DNA of 64,000 nt, from NCBI GenBank assembly GCA_964518565.1, contig CAZFGX010000001.1, positions 798,568 through 862,567 on the forward strand, in the 5' to 3' direction. This DNA comes from an uncultured Gammaproteobacteria bacterium. Lineage in GTDB: Bacteria; Patescibacteriota; Microgenomatia; CAZETR01; Amesbacteraceae. The notes beneath the pieces are model-generated. The model worked only from the letters and a program-made list of their open reading frames with translations. It ran no database searches and had not been told where the DNA came from. A program made the translations under genes and the position numbers. Below are positions 3,975-58,356 of this stretch, piece after piece; positions within the stretch are counted from its first letter, which is position 1; every line of letters starts with the position of its first letter.

Positions 3975-4007
<33 letters not shown>

Positions 4008-4124: not shown

Positions 4125-4173
<49 letters not shown>

Positions 4174-4241
4174 CTTTTAACCGGCGAACAGCCGGACCCT
4201 TGGAAGGTACTGCCCCTCCAGGATAGGATGAGCCGACATCG

Positions 4242-6890: not shown

Positions 6891-6931
<41 letters not shown>

Positions 6932-7514
6932 GGATAAGAGTATTTAGCCTTGGAGTGTGGTCACCCCGGATTCCCACAAGATCGTATTTCTCATGGTACT
7001 TGGGTATCCAATAGCATTGCGACACATTTCAGATACGAGACTATCACTCTCTTTGGTCAACATTTCCATGTTGTTCTCTTATCTGTCACAAATTACATAT
7101 TATGGACCCCGCAACCCCCAAGTCTTGCGACTGGGTTTAGGCTGTTCCGCGTTCGCTCGCCGCTTACTAACGGAATCTCGTTGATTTATTTTCCTGCCCC
7201 TACTTAGATGTTTCAGTTCGGAGCGTTCCCTTCCTCGCCAAAGGCGTAGGATCCTCATAAAGAGGAGGTTTCCCTATTCGGACACCGCCGGATCAAAGCT
7301 TCTTAGCAGCTCCCCGACGACTTTCGTGGCTATGTACGTCCTTCTTCGGCTCATTATCCCCTAGGCATTCATTGTCTGCTTTACGGAAGTAAAACATACG
7401 GCTCTACTAATTCAATTCTCTTCACTTTTAAAAGAACAAGACTCATCAAGTCAGCCGTAAAAGCTGATATCAATCCTGAAAATATTTCAAAACTGATATC
7501 AATTTTTAACGAGT

Positions 7515-7586
7515 GGACCCGAGCAGACTCGAACTGCTTACCTCCTCATTGCAAATGAGGCGTTCTACCAGGTGAACTACGGGCCC
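7515..7586 (-). tRNA. tRNA-Ala (anticodon UGC)
   Basis: Reverse complement GGGCCCGTAGTTCACCTGGTAGAACGCCTCATTTGCAATGAGGAGGTAAGCAGTTCGAGTCTGCTCGGGTCCA gives a cloverleaf with anticodon loop TTTGCAA; located upstream of 23S as in ITS regions. Confidence 0.85.
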
Positions 7587-10410: not shown

Positions 10411-10411
10411 A

Positions 10412-11101
10412 TTATTGTTTAACGATTTTTCCATCTCTGACCAGAATTTGCCGATTCGCTTCAGCGGCAATGTCTGGATCATGGGTTACCATAACTATGG
10501 TAATACCTGCCTTATGCAAGTCTTTAAATAATTGCAAAATTTGCTCTCCAGTTTTGGAATCGAGATTTCCTGTGGGTTCATCTGCCAATAAAAGCGACGG
10601 CTTAGTTACCAGCGCCCGAGCAATCGCTACTCGCTGCTGTTGCCCTCCTGATAACTGCGAGGGTTTATTTTTTAGCTTCTCACCCAACCCTACCCGTTCC
10701 AACTCTTCTTTTGCCAAACGTTCTCGTTCAGTTCTACTCATACCTCGATATATAAGTGGTAATTCGACATTTACCAGTGCCGGAGTTCGTGCCAGCAAAT
10801 TAAATTGTTGAAACACAAAACCGATTTTTTTATTCCGAAATTCCGCCAGTTTATTGTCATTAAACGTCACTACGTCTTCACCATCCACCAAAATATGTCC
10901 TTCACTCGGCCGATCCAGCAAACCAATCAAATTTAATAAAGTAGATTTTCCCGACCCAGACGGACCAATAATGGCCACAAACTCTCCTTCAAAAACAGAA
11001 AATGATGCCTCCGATAGAGCTTTAACCTGAACAGAAGGATCATCAGGACTCGTATAAATCCGTGATACGTTTTCAAATTGAATTACTGGTATTTTTTTCA
11101 T
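10412..11101 (-). CDS. ABC transporter ATP-binding protein (MacB/LolD-like)
   Basis: Walker A GPSGSGKST, signature LSGGQQQRVAIARAL, Walker B LLLADEPT, H-loop. Confidence 0.85.
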   Translation of the reverse strand: MKKIPVIQFENVSRIYTSPDDPSVQVKALSEASFSVFEGEFVAIIGPSGSGKSTLLNLIGLLDRPSEGHILVDGEDVVTFNDNKLAEFRNKKIGFVFQQFNLLARTPALVNVELPLIYRGMSRTERERLAKEELERVGLGEKLKNKPSQLSGGQQQRVAIARALVTKPSLLLADEPTGNLDSKTGEQILQLFKDLHKAGITIVMVTHDPDIAAEANRQILVRDGKIVKQ

Positions 11102-12093
11102 TGGACAACCACGACATCACCCTCTTGCAAGCCAGACGTAATCTGTACTTCAAAATCGCTTTCCAAGCCGGTAGTTACTTTCTTTTTTGTTCCATCTTTC
11201 ATTTGCACCTCACCATCTTTTACTGCTTCAATTGGCAACACCAACGCCCCCTTAGCTTCACCTAACTTCAATTCAGCATCACCATTCAACCCCACCTTCA
11301 ACTGACTACATACTTGGCCTACACTGTCACAAGAAAATGTCACCCAAATAGGCAAAACTGTAGCTCCTGTATCGCCGATTTTCGTTGCATAACCCACACG
11401 AGAAACTGTTGCTGGAATTTTTACATCTTTGAATGCATCCAAAACAATCGTTACGTCTTGATGAACATATACACGAGTAATATCGTCTTCGTTCACTGCC
11501 ACATCAAAATACAATGACGCAGGATCCACTACGGTCATTCCATCGGTCACCCCAACAGTATCCCCAGCCACACTTACTGTACTACTTGTCACAACTCCTG
11601 CAATTGGCGATTTCAATGTCGCATCTCGGACAGCTTTTTGAGCCACCAGCCAAGCATCATAAGCTTTATCTCGAGTCGTCTGTGCACTCACCCGGGTACT
11701 TTTCTCCAAAAAAGATTCAGTACTGTCTTTATTTTTTACGGTATCCTCAATATATTTTGCATTCGCATCCGCAGCCAAATAATTGTAACGTGCCGCCCGT
11801 TCAGTGGCTTGCAAATCTCCCAAATCAAGGCCAGCTAGCCATTCACCTGCAGTTACTGGTTGTCCAGCAAATGCTCTCACAAAAGCCAACTTTCCCGCTG
11901 AGCCAAAAGTGAGCGACGCTTTTCGTTCGGCATCCACTTTTCCAGATACTACCAAAGTAGATACTAAATCTTTTCGTTGTACAGTAGCCGTCTTTACTTC
12001 GACAGTCGTCTTTGTTCTACTTTTCCACCAAAATCCAATAGCCAAAAGTACAATTAAGCCCAAAATATACCGCTTTTTTAAAAATCTCCGCAT
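11098..12093 (-). CDS. periplasmic adaptor subunit (HlyD/MacA family) of the ABC efflux system
   Basis: 331 aa, N-terminal TM anchor, biotinyl/lipoyl-like and beta-barrel segments; start overlaps the ATPase gene, consistent with an operon. Confidence 0.65.
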   Translation of the reverse strand: MRRFLKKRYILGLIVLLAIGFWWKSRTKTTVEVKTATVQRKDLVSTLVVSGKVDAERKASLTFGSAGKLAFVRAFAGQPVTAGEWLAGLDLGDLQATERAARYNYLAADANAKYIEDTVKNKDSTESFLEKSTRVSAQTTRDKAYDAWLVAQKAVRDATLKSPIAGVVTSSTVSVAGDTVGVTDGMTVVDPASLYFDVAVNEDDITRVYVHQDVTIVLDAFKDVKIPATVSRVGYATKIGDTGATVLPIWVTFSCDSVGQVCSQLKVGLNGDAELKLGEAKGALVLPIEAVKDGEVQMKDGTKKKVTTGLESDFEVQITSGLQEGDVVVVQ

Positions 12094-12114: not shown

Positions 12115-14280
12115 TTGCAAATTCGTCACAACGTATCTACACTTTATCGAGTAGGCATGAAAACATTATTCCTGTTTTCGATTATCACAGTTGTTACGCT
12201 TCTATTTCTTGCTCCTCAAAAAACCCTAGCCAGATCAAGCCCATTTCGTAAAACTATCGCCCTTGAACTAGACACGCTATGCAATCGCCCGCAACGCGCT
12301 TCTTTCCCTGCCGGGGCAGTTCCCGGCCAATATGTTTACCCACTCACCCAACGCGACATAAACTACATAAAAGATCTCGGAGCATCGTTAGTTATTATCC
12401 AAGGCGGTCCAGCTCTTTGGGCCAATGTTGCCAAAACTGATCCATATGCAAATAATCAAAATCCCGCCAATTGGAACAATACCAATTACAATTGGGAACC
12501 TCTAGATCGAGCTCTGGGCTTACTTCAGTTAAATAATATTGAACCCATCATCCAATCCTTTGGTACTCCATCATGGGCCAATGGCATTTATACCGATTCA
12601 TCTCTAGATTCAGATAATTGTTTTGATCTTCTGGACAACGGCCCCATTCTTCCCACTGCCCATAGCGGGCTTACTGAATATGCCAATTTTATGCAAGCCG
12701 TCGCCACGCGTTACGACGGGACCCATGCACCAAACCCATATCGCTTGGGAGGCTTTATCAGGGTAAACCGTTACATCCTCTGGAACGAACCCAATTATCA
12801 AGATTTCTGGACCGAAATTCGCAACGGTTTTCGTGTTCAAGATGTCGCTCAAGATTCAAGTTTAATAAACAAATTTGTCACCTTAAACAACCAAGCGTAC
12901 AACATGATCAAAGATGTAAATGCTTCCTCAATAATTTACGGCGGTGCTATCTGTGGCCATTGTGAAGGATTTACTTGGCTCAAATCGGCCTACAATGCCG
13001 GACTCAAGCTAGATGCCATTGCTGCCCATCCGTATCCCATTGATTACAATGTCAGTCCTTCAAATCAAACTCCTACCTCCACTCAGCTTTCTACAAACAA
13101 CATTCAAGCCTTAAAAAATCTTGTGGATAGTCTGCCAAATTGGGCAAACAAACCTATCTTCATGTCCGAATCAGGCTACAGAACCCACGAAGGTAAATTG
13201 TTTCCTAACGCTCAAGCAAACGAAGGACCATGGTTGTCTGAGATCTTCAGCATCTCCAAAGCCGTCCCGACCAATTATGGCTGGACCCAATTTTTACTTT
13301 ACCCAGAATCAAATTGGGGCACTGGACTAGTCTCAGATACTGGATCTGAAGCTTCCGATATTCGCTATCCTTCCTATTCAGTCTTCAAATCCACAGCTGA
13401 AATTTACCCCATGGACATGAACAACGACAAAATCATCAATTACAAAGATAATGTTCTTTTCATAAACGAAATTGGCCAATCCAACTCACTACTCAAAGAT
13501 CAAGCCGATCTAAACTCCGATGGCAAAATAAATTCTCTAGATTTCGCCCTCTCTACCAAAAACCGCAACGCCGATTTCCCCTTAACTGTTTCCCTGCCAG
13601 CCAAAGTTCCACTACCCATTAGATACGACGAAGTCACTATTTACCCCGACGGCAAACAAATACTTATTTATGGTTCAAATATGTGGGAAAGACCCAATCT
13701 ATCTACCACCTTCTGGTCAAGTGGACCGTTAGAAACCATATTTTTAGGTCAAAATGCTCCAGTCAGACTACCCAACACTCATATCGATAGCTACTCCGTC
13801 ATCCCTGATGGTGAAAATGCCGGAAGCATCACAGTCACAAGTGACAATCGTCGCTGGTATCGTAACAAACACGAACTCACCTGGACCACCTCCACCCTCA
13901 GCGAGCTTTGGACTGGACACACATCCAACTATCCTCTACCTATCAATGTCATTGAATCAAATACCATTATTCCTGCCGGACTCCCGACTGCTGGTGGTCA
14001 GTTAATTACTTCCGGAAACCGATATTGGTGGCGCAACTCCCAAACGAGCACCAGTTGGACGAGTGGCACATTAGCGGAATTATTCACTGGCCACTCTTCT
14101 TCCACTCCCTTACCCACTACCAAAATAGATGCAGTTATCACTTTTCCATCAAACTCACCTTATCCTGGTTGGCAATTTGTTTATTCAAGCGACCGCTACT
14201 GGTACCGTACCAATCTAAATTCCACCAGTTGGACCACAAATACTATTACCAACTCACTATCAGGCCACCAAGTCTACTAA
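12115..14280 (+). CDS. secreted glycoside hydrolase (clan GH-A TIM barrel, GH5/GH39-like) with dockerin module and three C-terminal ~60-aa repeats
   Basis: Signal peptide. ILWNEPNY (acid/base NEP motif) and IFMSESGY (nucleophile Glu). Dockerin Ca-loops DMNNDKIINYKD and DLNSDGKINSLD lie ~31 aa apart. Three RYW(Y/W)RN...SWT repeats follow. Confidence 0.75.
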   Translation: MQIRHNVSTLYRVGMKTLFLFSIITVVTLLFLAPQKTLARSSPFRKTIALELDTLCNRPQRASFPAGAVPGQYVYPLTQRDINYIKDLGASLVIIQGGPALWANVAKTDPYANNQNPANWNNTNYNWEPLDRALGLLQLNNIEPIIQSFGTPSWANGIYTDSSLDSDNCFDLLDNGPILPTAHSGLTEYANFMQAVATRYDGTHAPNPYRLGGFIRVNRYILWNEPNYQDFWTEIRNGFRVQDVAQDSSLINKFVTLNNQAYNMIKDVNASSIIYGGAICGHCEGFTWLKSAYNAGLKLDAIAAHPYPIDYNVSPSNQTPTSTQLSTNNIQALKNLVDSLPNWANKPIFMSESGYRTHEGKLFPNAQANEGPWLSEIFSISKAVPTNYGWTQFLLYPESNWGTGLVSDTGSEASDIRYPSYSVFKSTAEIYPMDMNNDKIINYKDNVLFINEIGQSNSLLKDQADLNSDGKINSLDFALSTKNRNADFPLTVSLPAKVPLPIRYDEVTIYPDGKQILIYGSNMWERPNLSTTFWSSGPLETIFLGQNAPVRLPNTHIDSYSVIPDGENAGSITVTSDNRRWYRNKHELTWTTSTLSELWTGHTSNYPLPINVIESNTIIPAGLPTAGGQLITSGNRYWWRNSQTSTSWTSGTLAELFTGHSSSTPLPTTKIDAVITFPSNSPYPGWQFVYSSDRYWYRTNLNSTSWTTNTITNSLSGHQVY

Positions 14281-14286
14281 ACACAT

Positions 14287-16479
14287 ATGATCAAATCACT
14301 CATCATTATCGGCGTACTAGCTACCACTCTCATCGTTGGTCTAAATTTAGCCAACAGAACTCAACGCATAAATTCAGAAGCAAGCAGTTTCAACACTCGC
14401 CTTTCATTACCAGCGACTTCTACCGCCACAGTAAACCAAACACTATCTCTGCCTGTTATGTTAAATACTGGCACAGCTCAAATCAGAGGCGCGGACGTGG
14501 TGCTTCAATACGACAAAACCAAACTCTCACTCAAATCTATCACTCCCAGTCTCTCTTCATCTTCTTTTACGTATCTACCGATAAACACTTCACATCTATT
14601 TGATATCAACAAAATTCTCCAACAAAGTAGTATTTCCGGCAACAATCAGACAATTGAATTTAACCTGGCCACTACTTCCATAGATAATCCTCAACCCACA
14701 ACCTTCTCCACGAACAACCAACCTATCCAAATTGCTATTCTCACATTCGATACTCTTAGCACTGGCAATACTCAAGTCTCTCTTATCAAAAATGGCGCTT
14801 CAACTACAGATAGTAATATCGCCCAAGCTGACAGTGGCCTAGATATTTTAGATTTTGTAGATAATAGTCTTGTTACAATTTCATCTCCCTCCACTTCCAC
14901 ACCCATTCCACCAACCGCGACAAAAACTCCATCAAACTCACCTACACTACCACCATCACCCACACCCACTCTCACACTCACCCCCACGCCTACACCCAAT
15001 CCGATCGGTTACCTAGACGATGCCACTTGTGCCACAATTTATGGCTGGTCATGTGATCCAAACTATAAAAATATTTCTGCCACAGTAACGATCAAAATCG
15101 ACGGCATTCCTCTCACACTTGTTACCGCCAACCAAACCCGGACAGACTTAAGTTCAGTATGTGGCAACACGACAAATCACGGATTCTCAATAAATACTCC
15201 AGCTTCAGTTTTTGACGGTCAATCTCACACTGTTACGGCCAGCAGCTCAATAAACGGTTATGTTAAAAATCTTACTGGTTCCAAAACCTTACGCTGTGTA
15301 ATCGCCACCGTCACCCCACGTCCATCCCCTACGCCTACAATTCGTCCCTCAATCACACCCACCCCCTCGCCCACCCCCACACCGATACCCACATCAACGC
15401 CCAAGCCTACTGCTACCAAAACCCCCACACCTATCCCTTCCACCACCACCTTCCCTCCAACACTCACTCCTGTCCCCACCACAATTCCCACAGCCACCGC
15501 TATACCCACTCCTATTCCAGATGGCTGGACTCGCTGTGCCACAGAAAACAATTTCTGCGCCTTTACCGGCACAGCTCAAGTCCGCTATGGCTTATTTGGA
15601 GCATATAACTATGGCGTCTTCACCAACGGCGTCCAATGTGCCAATTCTGTTTTCGGCGATCCTTTCGTCGGCTTTATAAAATATTGCGACTACCAATTAA
15701 TATCCACTCCCACACCTACCAAACCTCCCGTGGCCACCTCTACACCAAAGCCCACCACACCTCCTCAATCCACTAGCACCCCCAAACCCACCACACCTCC
15801 AGCCCCCACCTCTACACCTACTCCATCTTCCGATTGGATATATTGTGCCCAAGAACGCGAATTCTGTTCCTTTACAGGAACTGCAGAAATTCGCTATGGC
15901 ACACTCGGCAGTTACAATTACGGCACGTATACAAACGGTGTGGAGTGCAGCAATTCTGTTTTTGGCGACCCTTTCTGGGGTTTACGCAAACATTGTGATT
16001 ACCGCGTAATTACACCCGCTCCTGTTCCCACCCCCACTCTCCCAATCCTAAACAACGTCTTTAACATCTTTTACAACAATCTAGATTCCTCATGGCAAAA
16101 CTGGTCCTGGGATACCAATGTTCAAATTACCGATATTATTTCTACCACCTCAAACTCAAACAACGCTGGATTATATTTACGTAACCGTAACCCTCTACCT
16201 ACCAGCCAATATCAATATCTAAAATTCGATCTCAAAGCCAAACAACTACCCACCACAATTCGCATATTTGCATATGGTCAAAATTCCAACCCGCCTCTAA
16301 ATTCAGGCCTAGACATTAGTTCATACGGAACGATATCCACCCAAAATTTCATTACATTCAAAATTCCCCTATCCCAACTCAATGCAAACCAAACGGTATA
16401 TGGATTTTCATTCCAAATTTACGGCACATCTTCTTCAGGGAAAACAGTTTACCTAGACGATATTGTGTTATCAAACTAA
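14287..16479 (+). CDS. secreted multi-domain protein: cohesin-like module, PT linker, two Cys-rich ~58-aa repeats, conserved C-terminal domain
   Basis: Residues ~48-200 (LSLPVMLNTGTAQIRGADVVLQYDKTKLSL ... IAILTFDTLSTGNTQVSL ... LVTIS) follow the cohesin beta-sandwich pattern. Repeats GWTRCATENNFCAFTGTAQVRYG... and DWIYCAQEREFCSFTGTAEIRYG... are present. The C-terminus holds the shared W-x-W/LYLR/IDDI domain. Confidence 0.6.
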   Translation: MIKSLIIIGVLATTLIVGLNLANRTQRINSEASSFNTRLSLPATSTATVNQTLSLPVMLNTGTAQIRGADVVLQYDKTKLSLKSITPSLSSSSFTYLPINTSHLFDINKILQQSSISGNNQTIEFNLATTSIDNPQPTTFSTNNQPIQIAILTFDTLSTGNTQVSLIKNGASTTDSNIAQADSGLDILDFVDNSLVTISSPSTSTPIPPTATKTPSNSPTLPPSPTPTLTLTPTPTPNPIGYLDDATCATIYGWSCDPNYKNISATVTIKIDGIPLTLVTANQTRTDLSSVCGNTTNHGFSINTPASVFDGQSHTVTASSSINGYVKNLTGSKTLRCVIATVTPRPSPTPTIRPSITPTPSPTPTPIPTSTPKPTATKTPTPIPSTTTFPPTLTPVPTTIPTATAIPTPIPDGWTRCATENNFCAFTGTAQVRYGLFGAYNYGVFTNGVQCANSVFGDPFVGFIKYCDYQLISTPTPTKPPVATSTPKPTTPPQSTSTPKPTTPPAPTSTPTPSSDWIYCAQEREFCSFTGTAEIRYGTLGSYNYGTYTNGVECSNSVFGDPFWGLRKHCDYRVITPAPVPTPTLPILNNVFNIFYNNLDSSWQNWSWDTNVQITDIISTTSNSNNAGLYLRNRNPLPTSQYQYLKFDLKAKQLPTTIRIFAYGQNSNPPLNSGLDISSYGTISTQNFITFKIPLSQLNANQTVYGFSFQIYGTSSSGKTVYLDDIVLSN

Positions 16480-16511
16480 ATACTTTACTATAATAAAGTA
16501 CCAATCAAGTC

Positions 16512-18635
16512 ATGCATCCACATAAAAAAATCGCTCATCTTTCACTTCTGGTTATTCTCTCCGCTATTATTGCCACCGCTGCCATTATCCGCAATATCCA
16601 TCCACAAAAAGTCTACGCTGCTACCCCAATAGACGACTCCCCCGTCACCAAAAATGTTCTTGTCTTAAATTTTAATCCTATTATAGAAAGCCAAGGTGGT
16701 CAAAGGTTAACTCAACTCAAAAATTGGTCTGATCCACATGCCATTACCACCCAAATCGTAAACGCTTTTCCATCCATTAGCCATGGATATTTATCTATAA
16801 ATGTGACTGAATTCCAGGATTTAGACCAAATCTTTCCGCTCATTGACGGCTACCAATACACTGACGACACATTGCTTACCTGTCTATCAAACACCTCCAC
16901 CTGTCACAATCCCCAGGGTACTGACTACGCTCGAATGTTTACCGACTTCAATATTTGCTCCAAAAATGTCGACGAAATCTGGCTCTGGGGCGGACCATAT
17001 TTTGGCTATGAAGAGTTTAAACCCGTAAATTATTGTGGCAAAACCCAATTTGTCATGGGCTTTAGTTATGAACGTATGTTTGATGAAGCCATTCATGATT
17101 TTGGCCACCGGATGGAATTTGTAGGCAACAATCGTGTGGGTGATGGCAACTGGCAACAAAACGAGTCAAATGCCTGGAATCGCTATTCACTTATCGCCAA
17201 TCATTGTGGCAATGTTCACTATCCTCCAGGTTCTTCAATTCCCCAAGACGAATACATCTACAACAAGTCAGCGTCAGTCAGTTCAGATTGTGACGGGTAT
17301 CTCAACTATCCAGATGGGCCATTCACTCAAACGTCACTCACCTGTAGTGCATGGGGCTGTACCCAGGGTGGCTACGTCCAATGGTGGCTCTCACACATCC
17401 CTGCTAAAACTGGTCAAACTGTTGTCAACAACAAAACCATTTACAACAATTGGTGGAAATACTATGCCTTTTACGACGAGACATATGCTCCAACCCCCAC
17501 AAACACCGCAGGTCAATTTACCAACCTAAATGCGACATTAGAACCAAACAAATCCACTTTCAACTTTGCCTATTCTTCAGCCGCCAGCTCATATCGCATA
17601 GACATGTCTATCAGCGCAGACATGGTGTCTGGCACCTATTTATCATTTGGCCAGGGCACTAGCTCACCCATAGTGGTAAACGATCCCACCAAATGGGCTT
17701 CATACACCTGTGGCACACAATTTTGGTGGCGAGTTGTAACGCCTGAAAACTATATGAGTCCAATACAAACAGCGACAGTAGTCTGTAACAACGTCACCCC
17801 AACCACCACTCCCACTATTGGCCAATATACCAATCTCAGCTCCAGCCTTATTGCTACTCAAGCAACATTCAACTTCAACTACTCAGCCACCGCCAGTGCC
17901 TATCGAGTTGATATGTCCATCACTCCCGACATGTCATCGGGCACCTATCTCACCTTTGGTCAAGGCACATCTTCACCAATCATCGTTACCAATCCCACCA
18001 AATGGGCTTCATACACCTGTGGCACACAATTTTGGTGGCGTGTTATCGGATCTGACAGTTCTCAAAGCGCCATCCAACCCGCAGTGGTCAATTGTTCTAT
18101 CCCTACATCCACCCCGACCCCAATTCCCCCAACTCCCACAAACACTCCGCTTCCCACATCTACGCCCAAACCCACCCCTACACCCATCCCTCCTACTCCC
18201 ACACCAATTAAACCATTAGTTATTTATAGCAATAGTCTGACAGCTCCATGGCAAAATGCCAGCTACGGTGGCTCTACCACCTTCGGTTCAAACATCAAAT
18301 TCGTCTCCACTCAATCAGGTGGTCGAATGTATCTCAGATCTACCACTGCCATCTCTGCTCTGCCCTACAACTTCATCAAATTCTCTCTCAAAGGCAGTAC
18401 TCCAAATCTAAACATTCGTCTCCATGGTTACGGAATTAGTACTTCTACACCCATGGCAACCTACGGATTAACTTCAGCCAAGGGCTCACCGAGCAATTCC
18501 TCCTTTACGTCATACACAGTCGACTTAGCCAAAATAGACCCCACCGATGCCAACATCTACGGTATCGCATTTGAATTATATGGTTCCTCTGTAGGCAAAA
18601 CCCTCTATATAGACGACATCTCTCTGACGAAGTAA
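16512..18635 (+). CDS. secreted multi-domain protein of unknown function with two tandem ~100-aa repeats and conserved C-terminal domain
   Basis: Signal peptide; internal duplicated module (...KWASYTCGTQFWWRV...) encoded with a 47-bp perfect DNA repeat; PT linker; C-terminal shared domain. Confidence 0.6.
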   Translation: MHPHKKIAHLSLLVILSAIIATAAIIRNIHPQKVYAATPIDDSPVTKNVLVLNFNPIIESQGGQRLTQLKNWSDPHAITTQIVNAFPSISHGYLSINVTEFQDLDQIFPLIDGYQYTDDTLLTCLSNTSTCHNPQGTDYARMFTDFNICSKNVDEIWLWGGPYFGYEEFKPVNYCGKTQFVMGFSYERMFDEAIHDFGHRMEFVGNNRVGDGNWQQNESNAWNRYSLIANHCGNVHYPPGSSIPQDEYIYNKSASVSSDCDGYLNYPDGPFTQTSLTCSAWGCTQGGYVQWWLSHIPAKTGQTVVNNKTIYNNWWKYYAFYDETYAPTPTNTAGQFTNLNATLEPNKSTFNFAYSSAASSYRIDMSISADMVSGTYLSFGQGTSSPIVVNDPTKWASYTCGTQFWWRVVTPENYMSPIQTATVVCNNVTPTTTPTIGQYTNLSSSLIATQATFNFNYSATASAYRVDMSITPDMSSGTYLTFGQGTSSPIIVTNPTKWASYTCGTQFWWRVIGSDSSQSAIQPAVVNCSIPTSTPTPIPPTPTNTPLPTSTPKPTPTPIPPTPTPIKPLVIYSNSLTAPWQNASYGGSTTFGSNIKFVSTQSGGRMYLRSTTAISALPYNFIKFSLKGSTPNLNIRLHGYGISTSTPMATYGLTSAKGSPSNSSFTSYTVDLAKIDPTDANIYGIAFELYGSSVGKTLYIDDISLTK

Positions 18636-18663
18636 CCTAAATACGGTATAATTTGTGAGTCCC

Positions 18664-18698
18664 GGGTGCGTAGTTCAATGGTAGCCCGCTTTCTTGAT
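18664..18698 (+). pseudogene. truncated tRNA-like fragment (5' 35 nt resembling downstream tRNA-Ile)
   Basis: GGGTGCGTAGTTCAATGGTAGCCCGCTTTCTTGAT matches the first 35 nt of tRNA-Ile at 18789 with 4 mismatches, but no T-arm or acceptor 3' strand follows; hairpin-rich spacer after it. Confidence 0.35.
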
Positions 18699-18788
18699 CA
18701 CGAAGCCGCTTGCGGCGAAGGGATAGAAAAAATTCTCTCGTAAAGAATTTTTGATATAAGAAAGAGGGACACAGAACATTTTAAATTT

Positions 18789-18863
18789 GGGTGCGTAGTT
18801 CAGTGGTAGAACGCTTTCCTGATAAGAAAGAGGTCCATGGTTCGATTCCATGCGCACCCACCA
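18789..18863 (+). tRNA. tRNA-Ile (anticodon GAU), CCA encoded
   Basis: GGGTGCG/CGCACCC acceptor, GTTC/GAAC D-stem, CTTTC-CTGATAA-GAAAG anticodon arm, GGTTCGATTCC T-arm, terminal CCA. Confidence 0.85.
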
Positions 18864-18912
18864 AAAATCTCCTTGACGAATAAAAAAATTTTATGCTACG
18901 CTAGATGTAGAC

Positions 18913-19470
18913 ATGAAAAAACTGAAAAATAAATCAGACATTATAAAAACTTCAGTTGCCGTCATCGCTTCTTCATTTGCAGTAGTTCTTGCCACATCTC
19001 AACACTCAGTTTCTTACAACGCCAAAGCCGCAATTGAACCTACCCCTCTATATACGATTTTCAAAGATAGTCTAGCCAGTGGTTGGGAAAATTGGTCCTG
19101 GGGTGGCAAAGCCACTATTACCGATTACATTACATTTGTGACGACCTCCAACAACGGTGGTCTCTATTTACGCAGTAAAACTGCAGTCAACATGAGCCCA
19201 TTTGTTAGCCTACGTTTTTCTCTGAATGCGTCAAATTCAGAAAACATGATAAAAATATATTTTTACGGCGCAGACAAATCTACTCCGCTTAATCCCAAAG
19301 GGGAATACATTCTTCCTTATCGAGTATCTGGATCACAATACAACTACACTCTTCCACTATCTATGATGCACCTACCCAGCAACCCAAGTGTGTATGGTTT
19401 CTCACTCCAGTTTTATGGCTCAAATAGTAACAACAAAGAGCTTCGAATCGACGACATCTATTTGAAATAG
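18913..19470 (+). CDS. small secreted protein consisting essentially of one copy of the locus-specific conserved domain
   Basis: 185 aa, signal/anchor, then WENWSW...GLYLRS...YGFSLQFYG...IDDIYLK. Confidence 0.6.
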   Translation: MKKLKNKSDIIKTSVAVIASSFAVVLATSQHSVSYNAKAAIEPTPLYTIFKDSLASGWENWSWGGKATITDYITFVTTSNNGGLYLRSKTAVNMSPFVSLRFSLNASNSENMIKIYFYGADKSTPLNPKGEYILPYRVSGSQYNYTLPLSMMHLPSNPSVYGFSLQFYGSNSNNKELRIDDIYLK

Positions 19471-19499
19471 ATCCTAGTTTTCTGGTACAAATAATTAGC

Positions 19500-22400
19500 A
19501 TGAAATTTTTCCGTACAGTTTTTAGCACCAGCCTCTTACTGGTGATTTTCTCTCTAACCGCCCCAATTCATTCACATGCCGCATATGGCCTCCAAAGTAT
19601 CACCAATCTCGGTGGCACACCAGTCCAAATGGTTTTTGCTCCCGATGGCCGTTTATTTTTCACCGACAAGTGCGTAGGTCTCAAGGTTCGCAGTACCAGT
19701 GGCACTGTCAGCACATTTAGAAATTTTTCCAATCGTTGTGATTCAGAAAAAGGCGTCTTAGGTGTAGAACTCGATCCTGAATTTGGCAAAAGCACGGGCA
19801 ACGACTGGATTTATGTGTATTACTCTGTAGACATCAACAATAACGTAGCTGTTCGTTTTAAAACTGGCTCAGATAGTCTACAAACCTTAATTAGCATTCC
19901 TACTGGTAGTGCCGGCAATCACAACGGTGGTGCTATTCACTTCGGCACAGATGGCAAACTCTATATCTCCTCTGGCGATGGCCATCAATTTTCCCCCGCT
20001 CAAAACACCGGTAGTTTACTCGGAAAAATTATTCGTATAAATAAAGATGGCAGCATTCCTTCAGATAATCCATTTGGTAACGCTGTATGGGCATATGGAT
20101 TTAGAAATCCCTTCACGTTTGCCGTCAATAAATCCAACGGCAAGATATATGTCAACGATGTGGGTGAAGGTGCAGTCGAAGAAATAGATCAGCTCACCAA
20201 AGGTGCCAATTACGGTTGGCCTACCTGTGAAGGCAATTGTAGCAACTCCGGCATGACCAACCCCATAGCTCAGTATTATCATGCTGGCGCTGGCGGTCGT
20301 AGCAGCCCTGATGGTGAATCCATTACTGGTGGAGCTTTTTGGAACGGCAAATACTTCTTTAGCGATTACGCTGGCAATTGGGGTGGCACGTATACCAATG
20401 GCTGGATCGGCGTCCGCAATGAGTCCACTGGCTCGGTTCAAATCCAAATCCTAGGATACAACATGCCCGTAGCCATGGCAGTCAATCCAGTCGACAACCA
20501 GCTCTATGTCGTAGGGTTAGATGGCCAACTCTCCCGCATTACCGACACAGATGCCCCACCTCCAGCTGCCACCAACACACCACCAGTAATGACCAACACT
20601 CCCATTCCTGCTCCCAATCAACCCCCAGCACTCGTCATAAATTCTCCATCATCATCATTTAAGTATGCCGGTGGTGATACAGTGGTTGCTCTCGCCACAG
20701 CGACTGATCCAGAAGATGGCACCTTACCCGGCACCAGTATTCAGTGGAAAGTCGACTTTTACCACTACAATGTTTCACCTACAAATTTCCACGTCCATCC
20801 GTATCTAGACTGGTCACTCATTCCCAAAGGCAACACTGCCACCATTGAAATATCTCGAATCAACGAATACGTTTCCACTGTTTGGTATAGAATCACAGCC
20901 CGAGCCACAGATTCCAAAGGCGCCACCACCGAAAAATATGTCGATATTTATCCAGTCGTCGTTCCATTGACTGTTTCTTCAAATCCACCCGGACTTCAAG
21001 TCACCATCAACGGCCAACAACAACTCACTCCATATAGTACAGATACCGTAGCTGGGATTATTTACAACATCGCCACCCCAAATGCCCAAACCCTCAACAA
21101 CACTGCCTACTCCTTCACGTCTTGGAGCGATAATAGTACATCTCTCTCTCGCACCTACACTATACCCAGGACTCCCGTCCAGCTCGTCGCTCAATATCTA
21201 GCCGCACCTCAAACCACTATTACTCCACTTCCCACAATCACACCACTTCCAACAAACACCCCCATTCCACCAACCAATACCACATATTTAGGTCTAAATA
21301 CGATTGGCGATTTTTTTGATAGATACAACACTGGCTATCAAACCGGCTCTTCAATCATCACGGGCACCGGCAATCCAGTCATAAACAAAGTCAGCGCCTA
21401 TATAGGCGATATTGAGGCAGCACCCAACAACCAATATCAAGTCGCGATTTATTCAGATCAAGATAACAATCCTGGCACCCAAATCGCCAAAAGCACCCCC
21501 AGCACACTCAATGCCAACGCCTGGAACACCATCGATCTCTCAGCCCCTCTCCAACCTCAAACCAAATACTGGCTACTCTACAGCACCAATTCAAATGCTC
21601 CAGACAAAAACAATCTCAAATACAAACTATCCTCATCTGGAGCCGGACTATTTACGCTCCGATCTGCAGCCTTTGGCTCCTGGGGCACAAATCTGGCTAG
21701 TATCAAAACCCCCGCTCAGTACTCTCTCTATGCCTGGATTACCGGATCCACCCCACCCACAAACACCAACACACCTATCCCTACAAATACCAACGCACCC
21801 AACCCTACAACTCCACCAAATCCGACCACTCCTCCGTCTACTTCAAGCACAAATGTCTATACCGACAATCTATCATCCGGCTGGCAAGCATGGACCTGGA
21901 ACGGTACTGCTAACACCAGTTCAGTCAACCAATTTGGCAACAATTCTATTTCCCTGACACCTTACAATACCGATTCTGGTCTCTATCTACGCAAAACATC
22001 TGGTTCACCGATTTCTGGCTCCACATACAAATATCTCGAATTTAGTATGAAATCCGGACCTTCCAATCCACTAAATATCCGCGTTATGGCTTACGGCTCA
22101 AGTACAAATCCTCCATTTAGCAATGGTGTCTGGGTATCTAGCTATGGTGGCAAACCACCCACCGGCAACTATCAAAATTATCGTATCCCCTTAGCCGATC
22201 TTTCAGCTGCTGGCAAAGATATCTACGGCATTGCCTTCCAAGAACTCAACGATCCATCAGCCATCTTCTTTATAGATAATATTCGCTTCACCCAAAGTTC
22301 TACTTCTGGAGTAATTTACGACAATTCCATTGCCAACGATTGGCAGATCTGGAATTGGGGCGGCACCATCAACGGCGCCTCACTAAACCAATTTGGCAAC

Positions 22401-22760
22401 AACTCCATATCTCTCACTCCCTCAGGGGCTGATGCAGGCATCTATCTTCGCAAGGTAGGCAATGGCGGCTTTTCTACTAGTGGCTTCAAATATCTAAAAT
22501 TTATGGCCAAATCCGGCCCACCAGATCCAGTAAACATGCGCATTCTTGTTTACGGCTCAAACGCCAATCCGCCACTCAATGCGGGCAAGCTCTTGACCAA
22601 CTACGGCGGCAATCCTCCCACTGACACATACAAGACATATCTTATCCCCTTGTCTGATCTTGGAGCTGAAAATATCGATCTCTATGGCGTCGGATTCCAA
22701 ATCCAAGACAGTTCTCCATCCATCATATTTGTCGATGAAGTCAGTCTGGTAAACCAATAA
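19500..22760 (+). CDS. secreted PQQ-dependent sugar dehydrogenase-like beta-propeller (YliI/GSDH family) fused to PT linkers, a central domain and two tandem copies of the conserved C-terminal domain
   Basis: Signal peptide; NHNGGAIHFGTDGKLYISSGDGH, LGKIIRINKDGSIPSDNPF, WAYGFRNPF and ANYGWPTCEG match soluble glucose/sorbosone dehydrogenase hallmarks; two C-terminal domain copies (about 21853-22293 and 22310-22757). Confidence 0.75.
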   Translation: MKFFRTVFSTSLLLVIFSLTAPIHSHAAYGLQSITNLGGTPVQMVFAPDGRLFFTDKCVGLKVRSTSGTVSTFRNFSNRCDSEKGVLGVELDPEFGKSTGNDWIYVYYSVDINNNVAVRFKTGSDSLQTLISIPTGSAGNHNGGAIHFGTDGKLYISSGDGHQFSPAQNTGSLLGKIIRINKDGSIPSDNPFGNAVWAYGFRNPFTFAVNKSNGKIYVNDVGEGAVEEIDQLTKGANYGWPTCEGNCSNSGMTNPIAQYYHAGAGGRSSPDGESITGGAFWNGKYFFSDYAGNWGGTYTNGWIGVRNESTGSVQIQILGYNMPVAMAVNPVDNQLYVVGLDGQLSRITDTDAPPPAATNTPPVMTNTPIPAPNQPPALVINSPSSSFKYAGGDTVVALATATDPEDGTLPGTSIQWKVDFYHYNVSPTNFHVHPYLDWSLIPKGNTATIEISRINEYVSTVWYRITARATDSKGATTEKYVDIYPVVVPLTVSSNPPGLQVTINGQQQLTPYSTDTVAGIIYNIATPNAQTLNNTAYSFTSWSDNSTSLSRTYTIPRTPVQLVAQYLAAPQTTITPLPTITPLPTNTPIPPTNTTYLGLNTIGDFFDRYNTGYQTGSSIITGTGNPVINKVSAYIGDIEAAPNNQYQVAIYSDQDNNPGTQIAKSTPSTLNANAWNTIDLSAPLQPQTKYWLLYSTNSNAPDKNNLKYKLSSSGAGLFTLRSAAFGSWGTNLASIKTPAQYSLYAWITGSTPPTNTNTPIPTNTNAPNPTTPPNPTTPPSTSSTNVYTDNLSSGWQAWTWNGTANTSSVNQFGNNSISLTPYNTDSGLYLRKTSGSPISGSTYKYLEFSMKSGPSNPLNIRVMAYGSSTNPPFSNGVWVSSYGGKPPTGNYQNYRIPLADLSAAGKDIYGIAFQELNDPSAIFFIDNIRFTQSSTSGVIYDNSIANDWQIWNWGGTINGASLNQFGNNSISLTPSGADAGIYLRKVGNGGFSTSGFKYLKFMAKSGPPDPVNMRILVYGSNANPPLNAGKLLTNYGGNPPTDTYKTYLIPLSDLGAENIDLYGVGFQIQDSSPSIIFVDEVSLVNQ

Positions 22761-22764
22761 TCCA

Positions 22765-23430
22765 ATGCTCAAAAAATCGCTGCTCATCACAACCATTGTT
22801 TCAGCCATAGCTGTCATCGCCATCTTCAATTTCAACGGCAAATTGACCAGCAAACAGGTCACCACGTCCTCAAAATTGGGTCAACTCACTCCGCAAATCA
22901 GCAAACTACAAAAATCATTATCCGAAATGACCAAAAATACTCCCTGGGAAAAAATTCTGTCTATTCAGTTTGATGCCAAATGCAATATTCAAATGGAAAC
23001 CACTTCTGAAAATATTTCCATTACCTCCAGATACAACGAAAACGGCAGTCTCCGTTGCCAAGGCAGTAAAACTGCAGTCTCTCCAAATGGTAAACTCGCA
23101 GCATTTGAAGATCAAGGTGTCACCACCGACCGACGCTTAACAGTCGTAGAAGCCTCCTCAGGAAAATTTATTCTTATCAACCAGCCCAACATCGACCATC
23201 TCAATCAACTCGCATTCGTAGCAGATGATCGTATTGCTGCAGTGGAAGTAACCAAAGATGACACCCAACAAGTAACCATCTATAACCTCGCAGCTAACAA
23301 TACAACTACAGCAAGCTATTATATGTCCACCGAACCTGTTCCTAGCCAAACCACCACCATCTCCTTTTCAAAAGGCAAAATTACCTTTATAAATAATCAA
23401 AACCAAGTCATCAAAACTATTTCTCTATGA
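22765..23430 (+). CDS. hypothetical membrane-anchored protein
   Basis: 221 aa, single N-terminal TM, no motifs recognised. Confidence 0.4.
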   Translation: MLKKSLLITTIVSAIAVIAIFNFNGKLTSKQVTTSSKLGQLTPQISKLQKSLSEMTKNTPWEKILSIQFDAKCNIQMETTSENISITSRYNENGSLRCQGSKTAVSPNGKLAAFEDQGVTTDRRLTVVEASSGKFILINQPNIDHLNQLAFVADDRIAAVEVTKDDTQQVTIYNLAANNTTTASYYMSTEPVPSQTTTISFSKGKITFINNQNQVIKTISL

Positions 23431-23843
23431 CCAAAAAAATTACCCTCGCAGCCATCGGTTTAGCCACTATAGTTCTAGTTATTACAATTGTCGCATTTAC
23501 TCGTAAACAACAAGTTTCCAACTCATCAATGCAAGTCTCCCAGCAGCTAGACCAGCTCGCTACCTGGCGCATTGAAACCCCCTTAGATCCTATCTCAGAC
23601 CCATTTGGCGAATGCAAAACCGGCTCAAATGCGCCGATTAGCAAATATACGCAGCTGAACACCACTGGCTCATCCAGCGACACAAACCAACTATATACCA
23701 CTATTACAAACACTCTTACATCTTCTGGGTGGACAGAAGTTTCCTGCCAAGATACCCAGTCTCATACTTATCAAAAATCCAATCAGTACATAAAGCTGGT
23801 TAAGCCTACACCAAACACTTCTTTGACTCTCTATCTCCAATAA
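23427..23843 (+). CDS. hypothetical membrane-anchored protein
   Basis: 138 aa, N-terminal TM; start overlaps the previous stop (ATGA). Confidence 0.4.
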   Translation: MTKKITLAAIGLATIVLVITIVAFTRKQQVSNSSMQVSQQLDQLATWRIETPLDPISDPFGECKTGSNAPISKYTQLNTTGSSSDTNQLYTTITNTLTSSGWTEVSCQDTQSHTYQKSNQYIKLVKPTPNTSLTLYLQ

Positions 23844-23881
23844 ACTCTCCAAGTGTTTACCTAAATCCTAAATCACCAATA

Positions 23882-26647
23882 TCAATTTCCAATTGCAGGA
23901 GGAAGCGTAACTCGAGGAGTTCCCCCTCCTCCGACATTATCAGCCCGATTATTTGTCACAATATAAAGGTTTTCAAAAATATCTTTTATATCCAGACCCC
24001 AAGGGGTTGTAATAAGTGCCACCTGTCGCTGTTCGATCCCAAAACCATACAAACTTTGGAACTCATTAGCCACCCGACCATCAGGCCCCTGCTCTGTCAC
24101 AATTGCATACGCATCAATATACTTATCATCTACAACGTAAGCCCCATAATCAATAAACGCTCGAGCTAAAATCTTTCCCGGTATTGTTCGTAAACCATTG
24201 ACATTGAAATCTGGTTTTAATGCCAGCAAGGCACCAGGTGTAAAATTGGGATTAGAACCACGATACGCATCCGTCCCACCACCTCCACAATATCCATCAA
24301 CTCTGTTAGCCGGCCAACGCGCCTGACAACCACTCCAATAATATTGAGATGCCAATAAATTAACTTTCATAACATGGCTTATCTTTCCAGAACTAAACTC
24401 TCCTAAACGAATAGTTCCACCCAAAGCAGATAATCCAGATCCACCGTGCGAACCGTACAATCCAGCTTGATAAATGTTTTGGTCACCAAAGGCCAACAGT
24501 GTCGTTGCCACACCACCAGCCACACATCGAGTAAATGGTTGATTTTGTTTGACCGTCTGCCCATCAGGCATCAAAAATGATGCCGAATGATTTTGAGTCG
24601 TATTGCCTACCCAATAACTAGCCGGGACCGGCACAGATTGCACAGTTCCTCCTTGTGCAGGGCATCGATCGCCACCTTCAGTCCAACCTGATCCATTGTA
24701 TTTGACATCTATCATCGGCGCAGTTGGTTTCATCACGACAATATCTTCATCAATAGCAAATAATGTACCGGCACCTCGAACAATGTTGGCATCTTGATAA
24801 GAAGCGCCACTTCCAATAGATGTATTCCATGGTGAGTTTGAAGCAAATGGCCATTTAAACTTATCTCTTGTTCCATTTGACAACAAACCAAATGTACCAG
24901 ACATCACTGGTGGGTTGGTAGGTTGAACTGTGGGTATCGATGTAGTCGCAGGTGGAGTAGTAGGTGCTGGATTACCAGAAGCACAATTTCCTTGACCCAA
25001 ATTGTTCACACAAATAGGCAATTTCATTTCAGCGGCATTTTGCATACCGAAATGTCCAGTCAATCCTCCTTTATCAATCGCATGTGAATGAAATGAAATA
25101 ATATGCCAACCGTCGTTTAACTTCCGCGTATCAACTACATAGTCATAGTATCCTCGATCTCCAAAGGGCTGTGGCAAGGGGCTAGCATCTGGAGAAGAGA
25201 CGGTCTGAGCATACCAATAATCCTTGTACCCTTGCTCAATCTTAATTCCTCGATGATGCACAGACCCCGTTCCCTTACTTTTTTGTACTTTTGTTCTTAG
25301 TGTTATATTGCCGCTCACTGTTTTACCCATCAGTTCTAATGGATTTTCCAGCACATTAAATACATATTCAATATCCGTATACCACCCATGGGAATCCATA
25401 TAATCTCGAATTGGCGTAATAGTATTATGATTTGCACTATCATTTTCTCCCCAAGGACCAGTTTTAGCGCCAAACCATATTGCATGATTAATATTTGCTT
25501 GCACAATTTCCCCTGGTATCCTACCAGTAGCCACATCACGCACAGTTTCTTCAGTATGACATTCAGTTCGTTTTTCTTGCGAACCACCACCCTCACCTTG
25601 TACTTGATAAGTCACAAATGTATTTGGAGTCACTCTTCGACGATCTTGATGCGAATTAGCGGATATATTATTAGGCCACATATGCAATGTCATTTCGGGA
25701 TTTTTATTCAACGTATTTTTACTTGTCCCTAGCCCGTTCACCCCTGGCATCACACAAGCAATATCAGCCTGAACATTGGCATTAGAACCATATACTCGAC
25801 CTATTTCAATATTTCTATTAACGATCCAAATTTGGTTCTCGTGGGCATTGGCTACCAGTCCCCACCAGGCTCCACCTGCAGCAATATTTCTCCTACCAGC
25901 CTTTACCTGATCCAAAATAAATTTATTTATTACATCATCAGTATCACTTTTATCCACCTCAACTCCTAGACTTCCTGGTGTCCCTGTAGGAGCCAGTGTA
26001 TGAGTCATGCCTGGCATAGTCGGAGCCGTAGTGTTAGTCGGCCCAGCAGTCGGCAATTGGTTATTTGACGAGCCAGAAGTCGGTGAAGGTACAATCGTAT
26101 TAATAATCGGCTGCAAAACCTTTACATCATCAATCCACACCTTTCCCATGGTATTACCTAAATTCAACGCCAAATTTCCTGCAGCGATCGCTTGAGTCGG
26201 TTTAAACTTCACACTACTTCTACTCCAAGTCGGTGTACTCGTAAAACTCCACGAATTCATGGCATTCACGCCATCTAAAATCCGAGCCGAGCCTTCCAAA
26301 GGCTTTTCCGACCGAATCGCAAAATCTATCGTGTACTCGACTCCAGGCAAAAAATTTATCCCGTCACTCAAGACCACAATATCTTTTGCCAAGAGTCTAG
26401 GACTAGTAATCATCAATTCTGCTACGCCCGCACCCTGTAATGGCTGATTCGACGTAGCGTTAAAAGTCACCGACACATCTGTTGCTTTTTGCAATGTCCA
26501 ATTTGCTAGACCTAATTCGAAAGACGGATTCAAAGCAATATTGGTTTCCCCTGCCGCACCAGAACGCCAACTTCGAAAATAGCGAAAGCCAACCAATGCC
26601 AATACAAGACTCGCCAATGTTAACACCGTCAATAAAAATAATTTCAC
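23882..26647 (-). CDS. large secreted protein with N-terminal CBM4/9-like carbohydrate-binding module; remainder unknown
   Basis: 921 aa; signal anchor; NIALNPSFELGLANW...VWIDDVKV resembles the CBM_4_9 jelly-roll; PT linker; long uncharacterised C-terminal region. Confidence 0.6.
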   Translation of the reverse strand: MKLFLLTVLTLASLVLALVGFRYFRSWRSGAAGETNIALNPSFELGLANWTLQKATDVSVTFNATSNQPLQGAGVAELMITSPRLLAKDIVVLSDGINFLPGVEYTIDFAIRSEKPLEGSARILDGVNAMNSWSFTSTPTWSRSSVKFKPTQAIAAGNLALNLGNTMGKVWIDDVKVLQPIINTIVPSPTSGSSNNQLPTAGPTNTTAPTMPGMTHTLAPTGTPGSLGVEVDKSDTDDVINKFILDQVKAGRRNIAAGGAWWGLVANAHENQIWIVNRNIEIGRVYGSNANVQADIACVMPGVNGLGTSKNTLNKNPEMTLHMWPNNISANSHQDRRRVTPNTFVTYQVQGEGGGSQEKRTECHTEETVRDVATGRIPGEIVQANINHAIWFGAKTGPWGENDSANHNTITPIRDYMDSHGWYTDIEYVFNVLENPLELMGKTVSGNITLRTKVQKSKGTGSVHHRGIKIEQGYKDYWYAQTVSSPDASPLPQPFGDRGYYDYVVDTRKLNDGWHIISFHSHAIDKGGLTGHFGMQNAAEMKLPICVNNLGQGNCASGNPAPTTPPATTSIPTVQPTNPPVMSGTFGLLSNGTRDKFKWPFASNSPWNTSIGSGASYQDANIVRGAGTLFAIDEDIVVMKPTAPMIDVKYNGSGWTEGGDRCPAQGGTVQSVPVPASYWVGNTTQNHSASFLMPDGQTVKQNQPFTRCVAGGVATTLLAFGDQNIYQAGLYGSHGGSGLSALGGTIRLGEFSSGKISHVMKVNLLASQYYWSGCQARWPANRVDGYCGGGGTDAYRGSNPNFTPGALLALKPDFNVNGLRTIPGKILARAFIDYGAYVVDDKYIDAYAIVTEQGPDGRVANEFQSLYGFGIEQRQVALITTPWGLDIKDIFENLYIVTNNRADNVGGGGTPRVTLPPAIGN

Positions 26648-27059: not shown

Positions 27060-28543
<1,484 letters not shown>

Positions 28544-58354: not shown

Positions 58355-58356
58355 TG

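Follow-up and report, generated by a model that had tools for sequence, protein, structure and literature searches.

A candidate one-to-one cohesin–dockerin pair in an island of predicted exported proteins within the rRNA locus of a likely Candidate Phyla Radiation bacterium

The 64-kb stretch of contig CAZFGX010000001.1 analysed here (the window) carries an island of eight genes, designated P1–P8, that lie back to back at 12157–26647 inside a split ribosomal RNA (rRNA) locus. The first two, P1 and P2, encode a glycoside hydrolase (GH) of clan GH-A with a dockerin and a multimodular protein with a cohesin. The genes are adjacent and co-oriented, 6 bp separate the P1 stop from the P2 start, and the window holds exactly one module of each kind. 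We favour, with moderate confidence, the explanation that the island is native and encodes exported proteins directed at polysaccharide, with a minimal 1:1 cohesin–dockerin pair at its core. The modules themselves are identified with high confidence, and what they would form, rather than a complete cellulosome, is a small 1:1 pair for which precedents have been reported. The island is unified by a repeated carbohydrate-binding module (CBM) resembling CBM8, which an earlier reading of this DNA from its letters alone (the sequence-only reading) had not listed.

The dockerin of P1 and the cohesin of P2

The two genes and their modules are as follows.
12157–14280 (+): P1, 707 amino acids (aa) from the ATG at 12157; the open reading frame is open from a TTG at 12115
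13411–13551 (+): dockerin module of P1, with calcium-binding loops at 13414–13449 and 13507–13542
13588–14277 (+): four Trp-rich repeats of ~57 aa at the C-terminus of P1 (aa ~478–707)
14287–16479 (+): P2, 730 aa
14374–14886 (+): cohesin of P2 (aa 30–200)
15520–16011 (+): two Cys-rich repeats of ~55 aa in P2 (aa 412–575)

P1 comprises, in order, a signal peptide, a GH39-like catalytic domain, the dockerin and the four repeats; its start is likelier the ATG at 12157 than the TTG at 12115 (707-aa gene call, independent assembly). Residues 419–465 match the Pfam family Dockerin_1 (PF00404) at E = 4.7e-7, their score of 30.3 bits exceeding the cut-off of 22.9. The module has two calcium loops of canonical form, DMNNDKIINYKD and DLNSDGKINSLD, which are separated by 19 residues and follow the EF-hand-like pattern D-x-N/D-x-D-x-x-I/V-N/D-x-x-D of two tandem repeats of ~22 residues. 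They are the sole match to this motif in all six frames of the window, and the best PDB matches of the module are cellulosomal type I dockerins.

The catalytic domain matches Pfam GH39 weakly (15.7 bits against a cut-off of 26). Three remote homologues of this domain were found in a word-indexed collection, and these also carry GH5 and Glyco_hydro_cc matches. The motifs WNEPN (E211), HPY and SESG (E338), together with W387, are invariant between P1 and the three homologues; judged from the alignment, the motifs are hallmarks of clan GH-A. We take E211 to be the acid/base on strand 4 and E338 the nucleophile on strand 7, the strands being assigned from family knowledge. A profile built from the four sequences matched the GH39 xylosidase 4EKJ best among PDB entries (E = 3.5e-11), followed by PslG (E = 4.4e-8) and then iduronidase. 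The clan GH-A glycosidase with a two-repeat dockerin proposed by the sequence-only reading is thus borne out by both the active-site motifs and the dockerin score. No CBM was matched in P1 by the Pfam scan. The C-terminal repeats have the consensus PLP..ID....P....RYWYR....W...L.EL..G; they look hemopexin-like by eye, an assignment to which neither the PDB profile search nor Pfam lent support.

P2 begins with a signal/anchor segment followed by the cohesin, a Pro/Thr (P/T) linker, a domain of ~100 aa, a second P/T linker, the two Cys-rich lectin-like repeats, a further P/T linker and a C-terminal CBM8-like module. Pfam Cohesin (PF00963) aligns over profile positions 4–123 of 139 with 22.3 bits (E = 1.6e-4), under the cut-off of 24.1, and further tests of the cohesin were therefore made. 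An exhaustive HMMER search with P2 aa 30–200 returned 182 cluster representatives at E ≤ 1e-3, and in these relatives the cohesin domain nearly always lies right behind the N-terminal segment. Among the best 96 homologues, 49 have a Pfam Cohesin match (E ≤ 0.001, best 7.5e-62) and 27 carry a dockerin of their own. A word-indexed homology search with the cohesin fragment gave no match. When a profile of 40 domain members was compared with the PDB, 21 of the 23 matches were cohesins (best E = 1.8e-4).

An AlphaFold2 model of the domain reached a predicted local distance difference test score (pLDDT) of 93.3 and a predicted template modelling score (pTM) of 0.88 with a 40-sequence alignment as input, on which it rests (pLDDT 31 from the single sequence). 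The top 50 Foldseek matches of this model were all cohesins (best E = 9.3e-10), and the predicted structure has the nine-stranded flattened beta-sandwich of the cohesin fold. Identity to the solved cohesins matched, most of them clostridial, is at most 20%. We regard the cohesin call, which the sequence-only reading had put as a cohesin-like beta-sandwich, as sound, at a level that leaves types I, II and III unassigned. The Cys-rich repeats contain N-x-VFGDP-x-x-G-x-x-K-x-C, resembling rhamnose-binding lectins of the SUEL type, and have weak PDB matches to 5H4S and 2ZX0; no significant family match was found for them.

Adjacency of cohesin and dockerin genes recurs in relatives. Six related cohesin loci were fetched, and in four a dockerin gene lies directly beside the cohesin gene or genes; the dockerin loop motif occurs once in 753 kb of unrelated loci. 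One of the four encodes an M4 peptidase–dockerin protein flanked by two cohesin genes, another a TIG–dockerin protein ahead of two cohesin genes, and a third an SdrD_B/Ig–dockerin protein ahead of two cohesin genes. The fourth (JGI 3300015360 contig, 427–3570) encodes a cohesin–dockerin adaptor, a cohesin and a cohesin fused to two PG_binding_1 repeats, a trio that suggests a tiered, wall-anchored cohesin–dockerin assembly in another small-genome organism. A neighbouring dockerin was not seen in the remaining two.

The nearest experimental precedent comes from Cellulosilyticum lentocellum, where the adjacent genes clcD (GH5–dockerin, no CBM) and clcC (CBM3–X2–cohesin) encode the sole dockerin and cohesin of the genome, and the proteins heterodimerise with a rise in activity on cellulose (PMC13487519). 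P1 and P2 share with ClcD and ClcC the adjacent, co-oriented genes, a clan GH-A enzyme with a dockerin and no CBM, a partner with one cohesin plus carbohydrate-binding modules, the lack of an S-layer homology (SLH) module in either protein, the status of sole cohesin and dockerin in the sequence examined, and asymmetric dockerin repeats. They differ in their host, a ~1-Mb genome of the Candidate Phyla Radiation (CPR) type rather than a Firmicute, and in the order of the partner protein, which is reversed, with the cohesin N-terminal and the CBM C-terminal. The CBM is CBM8-like rather than CBM3, the enzyme GH39-like rather than GH5_1, and the dockerin internal and followed by four repeats. The heterodimer was shown for ClcC/ClcD and is predicted for P1 and P2. 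From the adjacency of the genes and this analogy, the P1 dockerin probably pairs with the P2 cohesin.

With classical cellulosomes, exemplified by CipA of Acetivibrio thermocellus, the locus shares a secreted glycosidase that bears a type I-like two-repeat dockerin, a cohesin protein with a CBM, and Pro/Thr linkers. It differs in having one cohesin and one dockerin instead of many, in a cohesin identity of at most ~20%, in the lack of SLH or sortase anchoring and in the lack of a GH48, GH9 and GH5 cellulase set in the island; no SLH module was matched by Pfam in the window. The window has no multi-cohesin scaffoldin, no set of dockerin enzymes and no SLH or sortase anchor, and strictly speaking the locus falls short of a cellulosome. 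The earlier description of the locus as cellulosome-like therefore holds for a minimal 1:1 pair and not beyond it, the nearest solved relatives of the enzyme being GH39 xylosidases and PslG, not classical cellulases.

A further likeness is to non-cellulosomal cohesin and dockerin proteins of CPR bacteria. The clusters to which the Gottesmanbacteria proteins OGG13910.1 and OGG19413.1 belong are 37–39% identical to P2 aa 30–200, and the arrangement of an N-terminal signal/anchor followed by a cohesin, in small-genome hosts, is the same. Most relatives are short and consist of one cohesin, in some cases joined to a dockerin, whereas P2 is extended by lectin-like repeats and a CBM8-like module. 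Peptidases or Ig-like proteins are the cargo in the related loci, and a glycosidase is the cargo here. Expressed cohesin and dockerin proteins have been reported for Ca. Shapirobacterales BG1-G2, a Microgenomates metagenome-assembled genome (MAG) (10.1101/2021.08.21.457207), and the cultivated Saccharibacterium Southlakia epibionticum has an essential dockerin protein, SEML1_0315 (PMC10633639). The expectation in the sequence-only reading that such a system would be surprising in an ultrasmall episymbiont lineage does not stand, given these reports and a family of at least 182 clusters whose named members are CPR. A full-text literature search for CPR cohesins and dockerins found only these brief mentions and no systematic study.

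A CBM8-like module shared by P2–P5 and the other island proteins

The remaining genes of the island, with the CBM8-like copies, are listed here.
16054–16476 (+): CBM8-like copy of P2
16512–18635 (+): P3, 707 aa
18210–18632 (+): CBM8-like copy of P3
18913–19470 (+): P4, 185 aa
19045–19467 (+): CBM8-like copy of P4
19500–22760 (+): P5, 1086 aa
~19617–20534 (+): glucose/sorbosone dehydrogenase propeller of P5
21843–22295 (+): first CBM8-like copy of P5
22302–22754 (+): second CBM8-like copy of P5
22765–23430 (+): P6, 221 aa
23427–23843 (+): P7, 138 aa
23882–26647 (−): P8, 921 aa
26153–26542 (−): CBM_4_9 (PF02018) of P8, aa 36–165, 27.4 bits against a cut-off of 25.9

An all-against-all comparison revealed a module of ~140 aa that occurs five times, at the C-termini of P2, P3 and P4 and twice in P5, with no further copy anywhere in the window. 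A profile of the five copies matched PDB entry 7T7Y_A end to end (profile positions 3–140 to 6–151, E = 1.4e-7), and P5 alone gave E = 1.1e-3. This entry is the CBM8 of a GH9 endoglucanase from Dictyostelium discoideum (DdCBM8), whose ligands are cellulose and soluble glucans, glucomannan among them, bound through W572, W574, Y600 and Q686 (PMC9079177). Of the residues on the planar face, the W-x-W pair (W572 and W574) and the Gln (Q686) are retained in four of the five copies, namely those of P2, P4 and both of P5. The present modules differ from DdCBM8 in being bacterial and attached to non-GH9 proteins, and their ligand is putative. We call the module CBM8-like by sequence comparison, not by CAZy classification, and consider it rather probable that it binds a glycan of the beta-glucan or glucomannan type. 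As P2–P5 share this module and P8 has a CBM4_9, the set appears to be aimed at one polysaccharide.

P3 consists of a signal/anchor segment, a domain of ~300 aa, two Ig-like repeats of ~90 aa, a P/T linker and the CBM8-like module; P4 is a signal/anchor segment with one such module. P5 combines a signal peptide, a propeller of the pyrroloquinoline quinone (PQQ) type, an Ig-like and InlB-B-repeat-like region, a further domain and two CBM8-like modules. The propeller resembles archaeal and bacterial soluble aldose dehydrogenases; it is matched by Pfam GSDH (PF07995) with 154.7 bits against a cut-off of 25 and by PDB entries 3A9G (E = 1e-30), 2G8S, 2ISM and 1C9U, in agreement with the PQQ sugar dehydrogenase named by the sequence-only reading; it falls under the NCBIfam subfamily cut-off. 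P5 shares the GSDH beta-propeller with PQQ aldose sugar dehydrogenases such as E. coli YliI (2G8S) and the Pyrobaculum enzyme (3A9G), and differs from them in being 1086 aa long and in carrying Ig-like domains as well as two CBM8-like modules; its activity is predicted. A PQQ dehydrogenase fused to carbohydrate-binding modules, as in P5, is also found among fungal AA12 enzymes. PQQ synthesis is probably absent from the host.

P6 and P7 are small, have a hydrophobic anchor at the N-terminus and match no family in Pfam or NCBIfam. P8, the 921-aa protein described earlier as CBM4/9-like, comprises a signal/anchor segment, the CBM4_9 module, whose score upholds that description, and two domains of ~335 aa between P/T linkers. 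Among the Pfam families by which the sequence-only reading had proposed to check the locus, dockerin and GSDH scored above cut-off and cohesin below it. Scans of sub-segments of the unmatched regions with Pfam gave noise only, save for a weak InlB-B-repeat hint in P5, and about half of the island residues have no family match.

By a heuristic, the N-terminus of all eight proteins is predicted to be basic and to run into a hydrophobic stretch, as is that of a 471-aa protein encoded nearby, and the same heuristic found no further membrane-spanning segment downstream of this stretch in any of these proteins. A C-terminal LPXTG sortase signal was not found in the island proteins or the 471-aa protein. 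The view of the island as eight large signal-peptide proteins joined by Pro/Thr linkers survives in part: all eight have the N-terminal segment, three are small (185, 221 and 138 aa), and the linkers are confined to four (P2, P3, P5 and P8).

The split rRNA locus and its likely CPR host

The island occupies one part of an interval between separated rRNA genes, bounded by the 16S gene on one flank and tRNA-Ala(UGC), 23S and 5S (3650–7586) on the other.
3650–3766 (−): 5S rRNA
3844–7390 (−): 23S rRNA, with a group I intron at 5118–5388
7513–7586 (−): tRNA-Ala(UGC)
7794–9209: 471-aa exported protein with a Pro/Gln-rich linker
9211–12093 (−): MacB/FtsX permease, ATP-binding cassette (ABC) ATPase and HlyD-like trio
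18789–18863 (+): tRNA-Ile(GAU), between P3 and P4
27062–28545 (−): 16S rRNA

The 16S gene and tRNA-Ala are 19.5 kb apart, with 12 protein genes between them, of which the island accounts for eight; the other four are the 471-aa protein and the ABC trio, which may serve the island, for example in export. Spacing between P1–P7 ranges from a 4-base overlap to 32 bases, the tRNA-Ile slot excepted. Scans of the locus for promoters and terminators performed no better than on shuffled sequence. The tRNA-Ile(GAU) gene lies on the strand opposite to the rRNA genes, in the orientation of P1–P7. The usual place of this tRNA is the 16S–23S spacer, and its position on the opposite strand suggests that the inserted block was inverted long ago; no sign of a recent inversion is seen in the strand bias.

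An NCBI contig of 1,001,365 bp encodes the exact P1 and P2 proteins, and the genome is of ~1 Mb. An independent Logan contig of 10.3 kb reproduces positions 7.4–17.7 kb of the window, from the gene for the 471-aa protein through P3, including the P1–P2 junction. The + strand of the window is made up of 27.4% C and 16.1% G, whatever the orientation of the genes. GC content and skew are 44.4% and −0.281 in the island and 43.3% and −0.251 in the rest of the window, and the island, which shares the strand bias of its surroundings, is on this ground taken to be native rather than a contaminant from Firmicutes. The bias is weaker at ~44–50 kb (skew −0.05 to −0.15), and the rRNA genes are read from the G-rich strand.

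Such a one-strand excess of C over G has been described only for Microgenomates of the order UBA1400 (Ca. Chazhemtobacterium Ch65, Collierbacteria and Beckwithbacteria), and in Ch65 protein genes are inserted between trnI and trnA of the rRNA cluster (PMC7143001). The bias of the window is as large. Three of the 182 cohesin relatives are named, two from Gottesmanbacteria (OGG13910.1 and OGG19413.1) and one from Dojkabacteria. The 16S gene is ~70–75% identical to the sampled 16S genes of CPR and non-CPR bacteria, with a Berkelbacteria MAG best at 74.7%, in a sample drawn with a poorly chosen query pattern that matched Bacteroidota. From the strand bias, the cohesin relatives and the intron-bearing split rRNA locus, a Microgenomates-like CPR host is likely, in line with the CPR-like genome and the position within the rRNA locus that the sequence-only reading had proposed.

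Several further features of the RNA genes were observed. The decoding-site stretch of the 16S gene (~27180–27200, −) reads CACCGCCCATCAAGCC, where most bacteria have CACCGCCCGTCACACC; by eye, the changes correspond to E. coli positions 1401, 1407 and 1408, and none of the 120 loci returned by a genome scan has the version with A at 1401. A second group I intron match (54817–55008) lies inside a tRNA gene at ~54775–55035 (−) that ARAGORN did not report. By eye, this gene has an acceptor stem GCGGGG/CCCCGC, a T-arm CCGGG/CCCGG and an anticodon loop CU|CAUAA, and would be a tRNA(CAU), for Met or Ile2, with the intron after U33. A tRNA-Ile with the anticodon UAU is located at 58356–58429 (−). This tRNA is rare in bacteria, in which AUA is normally read by a lysidine-modified CAU tRNA.

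Competing explanations and biological meaning

In the explanation that we favour, P1 would be an exported GH39-like retaining glycosidase lacking a CBM of its own, whose dockerin would dock onto the single N-terminal cohesin of P2. P2 would lend it sugar-binding parts, namely the two Cys-rich lectin-like repeats and the CBM8-like module, and its N-terminal hydrophobic segment may keep the complex on the cell surface. The whole set would be concentrated on one polymer, probably of the beta-glucan or glucomannan type, which P1 would cleave and whose released sugars P5 would oxidise if PQQ is present. The polymer could belong to free detritus, a biofilm matrix or the envelope of a host.

A number of observations weigh against this explanation. 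The P1–P2 interaction is proposed from adjacency and analogy, and the P2 cohesin taken alone falls under the Pfam cut-off. The dockerin is internal in P1 rather than C-terminal, and its positions 10–11 differ between the repeats (Y-K against S-L), so that its specificity is not readable from known types. The count of one cohesin and one dockerin covers 64 kb of ~1 Mb (~6%), and others may exist elsewhere. In the CBM8-like family, the P3 copy has A, Y and E at the positions of W572, W574 and Q686, a degenerate binding site, and Y600 of DdCBM8 is without a match, aligning to a non-aromatic column. No function is assignable to large parts of P1 (the C-terminal repeats), P3, P5 and P8, or to any of P6 and P7. 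Lastly, no close relative of the whole island was found in the collections searched; P2 had no relative in a scan of species-representative genomes, nor had P5 or P1 in scans of JGI metagenomes.

A possible, though clearly less probable, alternative is that the island is a host-attachment device, its modules serving as adhesins to envelope or capsule glycans of a host and its enzymes processing sugars of the host surface. The ~1-Mb CPR-like genome (PMC7143001) fits this idea, in that cultivated CPR bacteria are epibionts, as does the essential dockerin protein of the epibiont Southlakia, for which host-glycan targeting was proposed by its authors (PMC10633639). The N-terminal hydrophobic segments of all eight proteins could hold them on the cell, and the profile of the P1 catalytic domain also matches PslG, a hydrolase of a bacterial exopolysaccharide. 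Set against this, the island has no module directed at peptidoglycan or teichoic acid, and plant, algal and beta-glucan substrates are those for which CBM8, CBM4_9 and GH39 are best known (PMC9079177 and CAZy background). The host is hypothetical, and retention on the cell is itself a prediction. This alternative differs from the favoured explanation in its target, not in its mechanism.

It is unlikely, in our judgement, that the two modules are unpaired, the P1 dockerin and P2 cohesin each binding other partners, or the dockerin acting as a calcium stabiliser, with their adjacency due to chance. Cohesins and dockerins outside cellulosomes have long been known and are often single, with partners unknown (Peer et al. 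2009, as cited in PMC10066038). The dockerins carried by 27 of the best 96 cohesin homologues imply chains of other partners in the family, two of the six related loci have no neighbouring dockerin, and the window is 6% of the genome. These points have to be reconciled with a single cohesin and a single dockerin in 64 kb that lie 6 bp apart, with the same adjacency in four of six independent related loci against a background of one motif in 753 kb, and with an adjacent pair for which binding was shown experimentally (PMC13487519).

A contaminant, mis-assembly or recent transfer from a cellulolytic Firmicute, suggested by the classically clostridial nature of cohesin–dockerin systems and by the frequency of assembly errors at rRNA genes, is very improbable and close to refuted: the island has the composition of the rest of the window in both gene orientations, the nearest named cohesin relatives are from Gottesmanbacteria and Dojkabacteria, the P2 cohesin is at most 20% identical to the mostly clostridial solved ones, a second assembly covers 7.4–17.7 kb, and the 16S gene is closest, at ~70–75% identity to those sampled, to that of a Berkelbacteria MAG. 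We therefore rejected this origin, which the sequence-only reading had named as an outcome that would undo its claim, on composition and the identity of the relatives.

More speculatively, CPR bacteria may mount exported hydrolases and adhesins by means of general, modular cohesin–dockerin pairs. Each pair would then comprise a short cohesin protein, fixed by an N-terminal anchor or by binding to peptidoglycan, and, encoded next to it, its cognate dockerin cargo, be it an M4 peptidase, an Ig-like protein or the glycosidase of the present island; adaptors with both a cohesin and a dockerin would permit chains. The island might be a glycan version of this arrangement, the lineage-specific CBM8-like module providing a shared address tag for several enzymes, and the PQQ dehydrogenase P5 could conceivably rely on cofactor scavenged from neighbours. 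All of this we put forward tentatively.

The novelty here is modest and lies in the five CBM8-like modules, a CBM-tagged PQQ dehydrogenase in a reduced genome, and the recurrent adjacency of cohesin and dockerin genes with varied cargo. Cohesin–dockerin biology as such is unchanged, and the modules have been noted in CPR before. How ultrasmall CPR bacteria attach to, and live off, partners or substrates is largely unknown, and most of their exported proteins are without annotation. The island offers a concrete case, with two adjacent genes whose products are expected to bind each other and a repeated module expected to name the target sugar. If the pair binds, the minimal cohesin–dockerin principle would be extended from a Firmicute to a CPR lineage, and the pattern of four other loci, in which cohesin genes lie beside genes for dockerin-bearing cargo, would gain support.

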